From the IMG/VR virus record IMGVR_UViG_2681813205_000010: DNA of 4,157 bases. One strand, given 5' to 3'. The notes beneath the pieces were generated by a model. That model saw only the letters and a program-made list of their open reading frames with translations. It did not search any database and was not told the DNA's origin. Numbering within the stretch: the stretch's first letter is position 1; each line of letters starts with the position of its first letter. The position numbers and the translations under genes are program-made. The DNA is from a virus (lineage: Duplodnaviria; Heunggongvirae; Uroviricota; Caudoviricetes). Positions 1 through 4,157 of this stretch are shown piece after piece.

Positions 1-408
1 CTGGTCACGGCTCACCGCTGCGGTGTAAATATCCTGCTGACCGTTCTCCATAATCAGAAACCAGTTAGCCAGAATCGCGGCGGTCGTTGATTTCGCATTT
101 TTGCGCGGCACTTCGATAAAGGCGCTCGTGTATTTGCGCCGTCCGGTGGCCTTAACCTTAAAGCCGAGGATGCACGCAAAGGCGAACTGCTGCCACGGCT
201 CCAGCTCAATGGGTCTGCCACGCATCGGTCCTTTTACGTGCGGGCACACCCTGGAAAAGGCAATAAACCGCTCCACAACCTCACGATCGAACGTGTAAAG
301 GGGGCTTTTAAGATCCGAAAAGTACCGTTTAACGGCCTGTTTCAGCCGTTTACAGGCCGGAATTTTGCCCGTTTTTACGTCTTCTGCGTACTTATTCCAG
401 GCGGTCAA
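1..408 (-). CDS. terL: Terminase large subunit, N-terminal 136 codons; gene continues beyond the window start
   Basis: My own minus-strand translation of 1..408 gives an open frame ending exactly at base 1: (L)TAWNKYAEDVKTGKIPACKRLKQAVKRYFSDLKS...FIEVPRKNAKSTTAAILANWFLIMENGQQDIYTAAVSRDQ. It contains a deviant Walker-A-like stretch PRKNAKST (about 85..108), as expected near the N-terminus of a terminase ATPase domain. It lies directly downstream of terS. The only in-frame start after the upstream stop (451..453) is TTG at 406..408, preceded by GAGGA 5 nt upstream. Not listed in the ORF track, presumably because it lacks an ATG and runs off the window. Confidence 0.75.
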   Translation of the reverse strand, partial: MTAWNKYAEDVKTGKIPACKRLKQAVKRYFSDLKSPLYTFDREVVERFIAFSRVCPHVKGPMRGRPIELEPWQQFAFACILGFKVKATGRRKYTSAFIEVPRKNAKSTTAAILANWFLIMENGQQDIYTAAVSRDQ

Positions 409-870: not shown

Positions 871-1044
871 TCAGCGATTGCGGAAACATTCCATAACCTC
901 GCGGTCACGGTCGGTTAATCGCTTCGCTGTGATGCGTTCTGCGCGTCCTGACGCTTTATCTTTATGCCCTGTTTCCTGTGTCTTCCATGCGTCACGCTGC
1001 CTTATAAGTCCACGGATAAGGCGGTTTTGTTCCCGCTCATTCAT
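871..1044 (-). CDS. Hypothetical small basic protein, 57 aa
   Basis: The distal part of the listed 871..1275 minus ORF begins at an internal ATG (1042..1044) placed 5 nt before the HNH stop, so the two genes overlap by 8 nt (ATGAATGA). It encodes MNEREQNRLIRGLIRQRDAWKTQETGHKDKASGRAERITAKRLTDRDREVMECFRNR, which is highly charged and R/K-rich. The part of that ORF upstream of 1044 overlaps HNH out of frame and looks non-coding. No recognisable family. Confidence 0.4.
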   Translation of the reverse strand: MNEREQNRLIRGLIRQRDAWKTQETGHKDKASGRAERITAKRLTDRDREVMECFRNR

Positions 1045-1477
1045 CAGCGTCATACATCCAGTTATTGCGGTTAGCGGCCCGTTCTTCATCTTCACGAAAT
1101 CCACCTGCGGCACGCTTGCTTTTTGTTGCCGGATCAAGCCATTTCGTTTTCTGGTTATGACACGCCTGACACAATGGCTGATGGTTCCATTCGGGCCAGA
1201 AGAGAACATCATCGCCGCCATCGATGGGGATAATGTGATCCACCACCACGGCGGGCGTATATATCCCCTTCTCAAGGCATCGCACGCATAACGGGTTTTT
1301 ACTCAGATACATGGCGCGGTATTTGTCCCACTGTCTGGAGTACCCACGCGCGCGGCGGTGTCCTCGTCTGGCATCCTCTGCACGCCATGCCGCCCGCCTG
1401 TGCTCCTCACACTTACCGGACTTAACGCGCCTGTTACAGCCTGGTTCTGTACATCGTCTTAATGGTTGCCACGGCAT
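1037..1477 (-). CDS. HNH endonuclease, phage terminase-associated type
   Basis: 146-aa ORF with N-terminal Cys-rich segment (RRCTEPGCNRRVKSGKCEEH) and an HNH motif: DHIIPIDGGDD...WNHQPLCQACHNQKT (His, Asn, His plus a CxxC-His zinc-finger-like end). Located next to terS/terL, as in HK97-like packaging modules. Its start ATG (1475..1477) overlaps the connector stop (TGATG). Confidence 0.85.
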   Translation of the reverse strand: MPWQPLRRCTEPGCNRRVKSGKCEEHRRAAWRAEDARRGHRRARGYSRQWDKYRAMYLSKNPLCVRCLEKGIYTPAVVVDHIIPIDGGDDVLFWPEWNHQPLCQACHNQKTKWLDPATKSKRAAGGFREDEERAANRNNWMYDADE

Positions 1478-1770
1478 CAGTACACCCCCACATCACGGTA
1501 AGCCGTCCAGAGTGCGCCTATCGTCATGGGTACGCGCGTTTTTGCGTTATCCGCGACAATCTGGCGATTTTCATACAGGTGAGCGATAAACATCATGCAG
1601 CCAATCTTTATGGCTGGCGTGAACTCCAGCCCGTCATCAAAGCGCCTGCCTATGTGTATCTGGCACGCCTCAAGCGATGCGGCAATGTATCCGCTGATTA
1701 ACTGGTCTTCATCGTCGCCATCGATGCGGCAATGGAGTTTCACTTCTTCCAGGGTGATAAGTTCTGTCAT
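1477..1770 (-). CDS. gp6-like head-tail connector (adaptor) protein
   Basis: 97-aa ORF whose N-terminus MTELITLEEVKLHCRIDGDDEDQLISGYIAASLEACQ matches the conserved signature of gp6-like head-tail connector proteins (xLITLEEAKxHLRIDxDDEDxLI), with a C-terminal AHLYENR-type segment. ATG 1768..1770 overlaps the stop of the upstream gene (ATGA). Confidence 0.8.
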   Translation of the reverse strand: MTELITLEEVKLHCRIDGDDEDQLISGYIAASLEACQIHIGRRFDDGLEFTPAIKIGCMMFIAHLYENRQIVADNAKTRVPMTIGALWTAYRDVGVY

Positions 1771-2105
1771 TTTTCCGCGCCCTCACGACAAAGAATTTCA
1801 AGGCGTGTCCTGGCGGCATCTGGCAGCGGTTGCCCGATGATATTCAGTACACGCCCCGCCAGCGGCCCCGTATTGACCTTTATCCGACTGGTGGCGTTGA
1901 TGTCCTTCCGGTAGCGTATCCATATCCTTACAGTTCCAGTCGCCAGCTCTGCACCTGATGAAATGGCCTCCTTGCTGCTGATCATGTTCACGCTTGCCCA
2001 GAGTGTGTGACCGTCCAGCCACGTTTCGAGTATTTCACCCGTCATGGCTCTGGTCTGTTTCAGGGTCTGAATCGTTACCCTGTCACGCAGTCGCCCTATG
2101 TTCAT
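1767..2105 (-). CDS. Head closure / head-tail joining protein (SPP1 gp16-like)
   Basis: 112 aa from the internal ATG at 2103..2105: MNIGRLRDRVTIQTLKQTRAMTGEILETW...GTVRIWIRYRKDINATSRIKVNTGPLAGRVLNIIGQP. The N-terminal xxGRLRxRVTIQ and the central RIRYR-type motif are typical of this family. The listed ORF extends to 2147, but that extension overlaps the portal 3' end out of frame; ATG 2105 overlaps the portal stop (ATGA) and has GAGGGAG upstream. Confidence 0.75.
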   Translation of the reverse strand: MNIGRLRDRVTIQTLKQTRAMTGEILETWLDGHTLWASVNMISSKEAISSGAELATGTVRIWIRYRKDINATSRIKVNTGPLAGRVLNIIGQPLPDAARTRLEILCREGAEK

Positions 2106-3926: not shown

Positions 3927-4157
3927 TTAATCGTCGTCCTGTGGCAGTTCCAGAATCTTGATCGCGTTCGAATCCACCACGCCACCGCCTAAATATTTCT
4001 GCGTGAAAATTTTGAGGAAGCGCGGCTCTGTGAGCATGTCCGGTCTGGTGCGAACACCTGTTTGGTGAGCAACAATACAGTAACCGCGTTTGCAGTCACC
4101 CAGGGCAATATGGTTAACCGGCATAAACGCCAGATATTTGACCGTGAGGCCCAGCAA
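3927..4157 (-). CDS. C-terminal fragment of an upstream gene (5' end outside the window); possibly the major capsid protein
   Basis: Open frame running off the right edge and ending at TAA 3927..3929 (…GYCIVAHQTGVRTRPDMLTEPRFLKIFTQKYLGGGVVDSNAIKILELPQDDD). The leading M in the ORF track is a window-edge artefact, since the first codon is TTG. It is followed by a terminator-like hairpin, as is common after highly expressed capsid genes. Capsid identity is inferred from position only; I do not recognise the sequence. Confidence 0.45.
   Translation of the reverse strand: MLGLTVKYLAFMPVNHIALGDCKRGYCIVAHQTGVRTRPDMLTEPRFLKIFTQKYLGGGVVDSNAIKILELPQDDD

Follow-up and report, generated by a model that had tools for sequence, protein, structure and literature searches.

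The window analysed here, a stretch of 4,157 nt, carries every credible gene in its ORF list on the minus strand. In the direction of transcription these are the end of a major capsid gene and the genes for a prohead protease, a portal protein, a head closure protein, a head-tail connector, an HNH endonuclease, a 60-aa ORF and the small terminase subunit (TerS), followed by the start of the gene for the large subunit (TerL). Seven of them could be assigned to Pfam families. All these matches were significant except that of the partial capsid gene, which lay slightly under the cut-off; the full capsid gene of the copy in E. coli JB2 (385 aa) matched PF05065 with an E-value of 1.5e-61. The full-length TerL of JB2 contains ATPase and nuclease domains, and the HNH protein is a packaging accessory of HK97-type cos terminases. 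A Pfam scan of the 60-aa ORF gave no matches. The ORFs of the operon are intact and translationally coupled: an overlapping ATGA joins portal to closure gene and closure to connector gene, and a TGATG joins the connector gene to HNH. An earlier reading of this DNA, made from the letters and the ORF list only, had placed a gp6-like connector and a head closure protein at 1477-2105 and had pointed out that HNH and terminase genes, not tail genes, come after the pair. The PF05135 and PF05521 matches showed both coordinates and gene calls to be exact, and the genes that follow are as described according to ORF order and Pfam. In the window the closure gene stands before the connector gene, whereas in phages the order is Ad1 (connector) and then Hc1 (closure protein).

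Table 1. Genes identified in the window, listed by position
Feature	Position	Strand	Evidence
Large terminase subunit (TerL), N-terminal part	1..408	-	RefSeq annotation of JB2 copy; gene extends past window edge
Small terminase subunit (TerS), P27 family, 118 aa	392..748	-	PF05119, E 1.3e-23
Conserved 60-aa ORF between HNH and TerS	871..1053	-	Annotated in RefSeq copies; phrog_3173, E 7.5e-37, unknown function
HNH endonuclease	1037..1477	-	PF01844, E 1.2e-8
Head-tail connector (Ad1, HK97 gp6-like), 97 aa	1477..1770	-	PF05135, E 5.4e-12
Head closure/head-tail joining protein (Hc1, HK97 gp7/SPP1 gp16-like), 112 aa	1767..2105	-	PF05521, E 1.4e-22
Portal protein, 403 aa	2102..3313	-	PF04860, E 4e-90
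HK97-family prohead serine protease, 190 aa	3315..3887	-	PF04586, E 4e-48
Major capsid protein, C-terminal 76 aa	3927..4157	-	PF05065, E 2e-4; gene extends past window edge

The connector matched the PF05135 profile with 46.4 bits (cut-off 21.2) over residues 5-84 of its 97, and the crystal structure of HK97 gp6 (3JVO) was a weak match (E 0.32). [quoted passage not shown] In all elements compared, conservation extended over residues 1-60 and the last seven (YRDVGVY), and residues from about 60 to 90 were variable. The invariant C-terminus may be the portal-binding end, with the variable segment facing the closure ring.

The closure protein matched PF05521 with 80.7 bits (cut-off 25) over profile positions 1-106 of 106; by Pfam family the pair therefore consists of a gp6-like connector (PF05135) and a full-length Hc1 (PF05521). 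We retained the start at 2105, as in the sequence-only reading, in preference to an upstream ATG at 2147, because the RefSeq start, the first residue of PDB entry 2KZ4 and a gapless alignment of 112 with 112 aa to HK106 gp7 (48% identity) all agree on it. The 2KZ4 entry is a 112-residue NMR structure of a 'putative head-tail adaptor' and is about 93% identical to the closure protein (E 2.6e-66). In the PDB sequence searches this isolated structure and the weak HK97 gp6 match were the sole results, with no neck complex containing a close relative. Identity was 50-54% to the Hc1 proteins of phages Evi, Fraca and ST147-VIM1phi7.2 and 37-54% over six phage Hc1 proteins, compared with 36-55% to other cf-PICI closure proteins and 96% to the EDL933 copy (5 of 112 residues differ). 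A scan of species-representative genomes, which says little on cross-species distribution, returned a 94% identical protein from one locus, in Shigella flexneri SFBU1023 (CP182556.1; positions 10001-10336 of stretch L015).

The complete element and its classification

Matches to the window were found in 534 of 5426 complete E. coli genomes, all of them chromosomal. The best match was E. coli JB2 (99.5% nt identity), followed by many O157:H7 genomes. Between the window and JB2 there are 20 mismatches, of which 17 lie at the 3' end of the capsid gene (window 4016-4146); the complete element was therefore deduced from close relatives and not from its own source genome. In JB2 the element is 15,046 bp long and lies between exact 27-bp direct repeats within a split tqsA. 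It encodes an integrase (Phage_integrase and Arm-DNA-bind_3 domains), AlpA (Phage_AlpA, E 5e-18), a RepA-type helicase (RepA family, with AAA_25), an SSB, a PerC-family regulator and the eight packaging genes, and it contains 11 of 11 cf-PICI core genes.

The sequence-only reading had made its proposal depend on the absence of tail genes from the full element. Among the annotated CDSs of the JB2 element, every one of which is accounted for, no tail or lysis gene was found. No ORF of at least 100 aa exists there beyond the known genes or their shadow frames, and no unexplained ORF has tape-measure length. For the small hypothetical ORFs, PHROGs of 'unknown function' were the sole matches, and Pfam and PADLOC scans of the element's hypothetical ORFs gave none. 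No match below E 0.03 was obtained in a tblastn search of the element with 13 tail proteins, which came from HK106, HK022 and Evi and comprised Ne1, terminator, major tail, tape measure and minor tail proteins. The O157:H7 and EDL933 copies likewise have no tail genes. In JB2, O157:H7 2571 and EDL933 the element stops about 0.7-1 kb past TerL, beside chromosomal genes, and its other side carries replication, regulation and integration genes only. Thus in the closest complete copies (JB2, O157:H7 and EDL933) there is neither a tail gene nor, anywhere in the element, a complete tail module.

Very probably, the window represents the operon for morphogenesis and packaging in a cf-PICI nearly identical to the prototype, EcCIEDL933. 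[quoted passage not shown] The 99.5% identical JB2 copy supplies the integrase, the AlpA-type regulator and the primase/replicase module, and with its 15,046 bp and 27-bp repeats it lies within the range of about 10-18 kb with defined attachment sites. It lacks tail and lysis (holin) genes, the lysis genes being judged by annotation. SatelliteFinder takes adaptor and connector as core cf-PICI markers and treats tail and holin genes as 'forbidden' components. The 15.4-kb EcCIEDL933 encodes capsid, protease, portal, head-tail connectors, HNH and both terminase subunits and no tail genes, and the order in proteobacterial cf-PICIs is capsid-protease-portal-head connectors-hnh-terS-terL (Alqurainy et al. 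2022/2023). It has been shown experimentally to make its own capsids (T=4, 47.5 nm), to use HK106 tails and to be transferred. The window is 97.4% identical in nt to the EDL933 chromosome and its packaging proteins 96-100% in aa, with a value of 99% for the portal; gene order and content, a size of about 15 kb and the absence of tail genes are all shared. The two differ in location, EcCIEDL933 lying between phoQ and roxA and the closest complete copy, that of JB2, in tqsA with a 91% identical integrase, and in the replication module, which has a RepA-type helicase in JB2 and a DUF927 protein in EDL933.

Compared with gp6 and gp7 of HK97 and HK106, the window pair belongs to the same Pfam families, and for both pairs a stack of rings beneath the portal is presumed. 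The window pair is, however, inverted (Hc1 before Ad1) and follows the portal gene, whereas the phage pair follows the capsid gene; the phage pair is succeeded by Ne1, the tail terminator and tail genes, and the window pair by HNH and terminase genes. Identity of the connector to gp6 is only 23-24%. With classical PICIs, SaPIs and P4 the element shares the design of an integrated satellite of ~15 kb that has an integrase, an AlpA-type regulator and replication genes and needs a helper for transfer. Those satellites remodel helper capsids and use the helper's capsid, portal and connector, whereas the window element encodes all three and takes the tail only.

Two other readings of a tail-less set of head genes were considered. 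If the element were a decayed prophage, from which the tail and lysis modules had been deleted, the head-completion genes would be leftovers without a role. The structural proteins do all come from ordinary HK97-type phage families and carry the names of plain phage proteins in RefSeq. Against this stand the intact, coupled ORFs, a gene order unlike that of a phage, a design of ~15 kb with integrase, AlpA and replication genes that recurs at several chromosomal sites, the presence of at least 80% of the window in 375 of the 5426 genomes, and the experimental demonstration that the 97.4% identical EcCIEDL933 forms capsids and transfers. A remnant is thus highly improbable, and we rejected it on the state of the ORFs, the recurring 15-kb design and the published mobility of EcCIEDL933. 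The window spans only 4.2 kb, which would leave room for a complete small phage with its tail genes elsewhere in the element or just past the window edge. We see next to no chance of this: the element ends in JB2, O157:H7 2571 and EDL933 lie shortly after TerL, the 13 tail proteins found nothing by tblastn and no spare ORF of tape-measure length is present, and for the closest relatives the element ends and the tail-gene searches exclude it.

As a cf-PICI, the element would build a small HK97-fold capsid from its own capsid protein, protease and portal and would package its own DNA by means of HNH, TerS and TerL. The filled head would then be completed with two rings, the connector on the satellite portal and the closure protein on the connector. 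The closure ring is expected to retain the DNA, to plug the filled capsid and to offer a docking surface for a tail, which a helper siphophage would supply together with the tail terminator and the tail completion protein. Because the element has no tail genes, the two proteins would set which phage tails it can use and therefore which cells it can reach.

That the two head-completion proteins determine the helper range was what the sequence-only reading had proposed. The proposal is correct and had already been demonstrated, so that it amounts to a rediscovery rather than a new result. Tail-less, DNA-filled capsids are released by cf-PICIs and then joined to free phage tails; the tails that EcCIEDL933 uses are those of HK106 and not those of HK022; and when the adaptor and connector genes of KpCIDSM30104 were replaced by those of EcCIEDL933 or EcCIGN02175, the tail specificity switched (He et al. 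2025). The 'adaptor' of those authors is our closure protein (Hc1) and their 'connector' is Ad1. The EcCIEDL933 proteins used in this complementation are 96% and 98% identical to those of the window. In the published swaps adaptor and connector were always exchanged as a pair (He et al. 2025). To this the present analysis makes three modest additions: a head/tail asymmetry of the two proteins, exact recombination boundaries and a sub-lineage without a closure gene.

Related elements and exchange of the head-completion genes

The design of ~15 kb, including an integrase, AlpA and replication genes of its own, was found at several chromosomal sites: tqsA, phoQ/roxA, clpS/cspD, near fis and beside a truncated yifB. 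Near-identical packaging modules occupied different sites, within tqsA in JB2 and between phoQ and roxA in O157:H7. The integrases of these two elements (L001:25552-26781 in JB2 and L002:26021-27250 in O157:H7) are 91% identical, and the differences lie mostly in the N-terminal arm-binding region. Directly upstream of the capsid operon, the JB2 element has a gene for a PerC-family transcriptional activator (L001:19726-19998; PF06069, E 2.7e-44); PerC homologues regulate virulence loci in EPEC and EHEC.

A natural exchange of the head-completion cassette was observed in E. coli IAI39. Per 100-nt window, identity to the stretch analysed here was 95-100% over TerL, TerS, HNH, portal and most of the protease gene. 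It dropped to 47-63% in the closure gene (1751-2100) and to 58-74% at the 3' end of the connector gene (1451-1550). The edges of the swap match the limits of 1477-2105 given in the sequence-only reading. The C-terminal third of the connector has been replaced along with the closure gene, and since the two were exchanged jointly the connector may also contribute to specificity. Identity dropped as well in the capsid gene, past about 3850. The capsid gene is thus also mosaic, the IAI39 capsid protein (L005:6932-8104) being 69% identical and the adjoining protease 95%.

In an element of NZ_OZ040555.1, located between clpS and cspD, a connector of 100 aa directly follows the portal, with no closure gene in between (L006:4477-5986). 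A tblastn search of the 20-kb stretch around it (L010:1-20001) with 8 Hc1 proteins detected no closure homologue (best E 0.14). About 150 E. coli genomes fall into the same match class, which is marked by identities of 80-90%, a coverage of about 76% and a list of feature names shorter by two. The cf-PICI relatives in these genomes appear to lack a closure gene, one such element having been inspected in full. The closure gene is apparently missing from the KFu015 (H175) record too. Relatives of this kind would need the Hc1 of the helper in addition to its tail, or direct docking of the terminator on the connector. If so, their tail piracy would be of a second grade: the helper range would differ, and a stable tail-less particle might not exist.

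Two further elements used in the comparisons below have observations of their own. The record LR881103.1, 'Escherichia phage vB_KppS-Ant' (16.5 kb; L004:1-16548), was deposited as an induced prophage or phage. All parts of the cf-PICI layout are present in it (int, primase, capsid, protease, portal, closure, connector, HNH, TerS, TerL), and it is probably a packaged satellite. An ORF of 765 aa after TerL (2036-4333), annotated as tape measure, gave no Pfam or PADLOC match. In the element of E. coli OW1E2 two divergent genes upstream of the capsid gene (L008:8273-9830) matched the PADLOC candidate defence system PDC-M18 (A, E 1.9e-71; B, E 7.8e-23). The variable region of this cf-PICI thus contains a putative anti-phage system.

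The tail-facing side of the pair

The sequence-only reading treated both proteins as equal determinants of helper range. The pair as such stands as the published determinant, and our comparisons suggest a division of labour in which the closure protein faces the tail and the connector mainly the portal. In solved siphophage necks the rings follow each other in the order portal, connector (Ad1), Hc1 and tail terminator. In the 80alpha/SaPI1 neck structure the terminator ring is clamped by the ring equivalent to Hc1, and in SPP1 gp16 (Hc1) stays on tail-less filled heads as a stopper. From this ring order and the stopper role of gp16 the closure protein is predicted to hold the DNA and to form the docking face.

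The identities to phage proteins point the same way. Compared with those of the helper HK106, the window proteins showed 48% identity for closure, 24% for portal, 23% for connector and 19% for capsid. Among seven cf-PICI-like elements the portals were 78-99% and the connectors 54-98% identical to each other, and both were far from the phage proteins (17-31%). The closure proteins of the same elements were 31-68% identical to phage Hc1 and 35-61% to each other. We also compared neck genes among phages, using the established helper HK106 together with HK022, Evi, Fraca and one Klebsiella phage. HK106 and HK022 have portal, capsid and Ad1 proteins that are 99-100% identical, while identity is 28% for Hc1, 27% for Ne1 and 25% for the terminator. 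Over the 10 pairs formed by the 5 phages, Hc1 identity correlated with that of Ne1 (r 0.94) and of the terminator (r 0.92), correlations from a small sample that are driven largely by HK022, and the corresponding values for portal, capsid and Ad1 were r -0.1 to -0.2. In HK022 itself (L014:5545-6309) a truncated 78-aa remnant of an HK106/HK97-type gp7 is followed by gp8 and then by an unrelated full-length Hc1 (gp9). With this arrangement, the head and tail modules meet in a recombination joint that lies exactly at the Hc1 gene.

The closure alleles also differ in which phage they resemble. The closure proteins of the window and EDL933 are 48% identical to HK106 gp7 and 37% to HK022 gp9. For the Klebsiella element vB_KppS-Ant the values are 31% and 48%, and the OW1E2 protein is about equidistant (40% to HK106 gp7 and 42% to HK022 gp9). 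This pattern would parallel the published specificities of EcCIEDL933, KpCIDSM30104 and EcCIGN02175, if vB_KppS-Ant and OW1E2 carry the alleles of the latter two. We infer that vB_KppS-Ant may correspond to the KpCIDSM30104 allele and OW1E2 to the EcCIGN02175 allele, an equation based on just six pairwise identities that lie within about 3 points of the published ones (49/84, 35/60-63 and 39-40/60-62 here, 50/83, 35/63 and 40/61 as published). A search with the OW1E2 cassette matched 10 genomes, and strain GN02175 was not among them.

Taken from these sequence comparisons, the closure protein is likely to be the main tail-matching part, and the connector would be matched mainly to the satellite's own portal. 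The 48% identity to the helper gp7 is compatible with a shared docking surface and does not prove one. A stricter form of this reading, which we regard as possible and put forward tentatively, sets the head-tail boundary between the two proteins: the closure gene would come from the gene pool of phage tail modules and would by itself determine which tails fit, and the connector would act as a portal adaptor specific to the satellite, with variable residues 60-90 that co-adapt to the closure allele.

Specificity could instead be set mainly by the connector, or equally by both proteins, in which case the likeness of closure protein and phage Hc1 would reflect slower evolution or recent capture. 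Every published swap moved both genes, in IAI39 the C-terminal third of the connector was exchanged with the closure gene, and the roughly 150 E. coli genomes described above appear to have a connector and no closure gene. Moreover, certain phages have no Hc1 equivalent, and in these the terminator docks directly on a modified connector. We nevertheless consider such a role of the connector unlikely, as the Hc1 ring lies between connector and tail terminator in the solved siphophage necks and in phages Hc1 shares its inheritance with the neck genes of the tail side rather than with Ad1. In addition, the cf-PICI connectors form a tight group far from phage Ad1, whereas the closure proteins are as near to phage Hc1 as to each other.

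Either way, the two genes are the published determinants of which tails, and hence which hosts, the element can use. The closure allele of the window resembles the Hc1 of phages with HK97/HK106-type necks, which makes such phages the likely donors of tails. cf-PICIs are among the commonest phage satellites of enterobacteria, and the window finds a match in 534 of the 5426 complete E. coli genomes. Their tail-less capsids can take the tails of phages of other species, by which their DNA crosses species boundaries. The cassette-like exchange between otherwise identical elements means that the helper range is changeable through a single recombination event.
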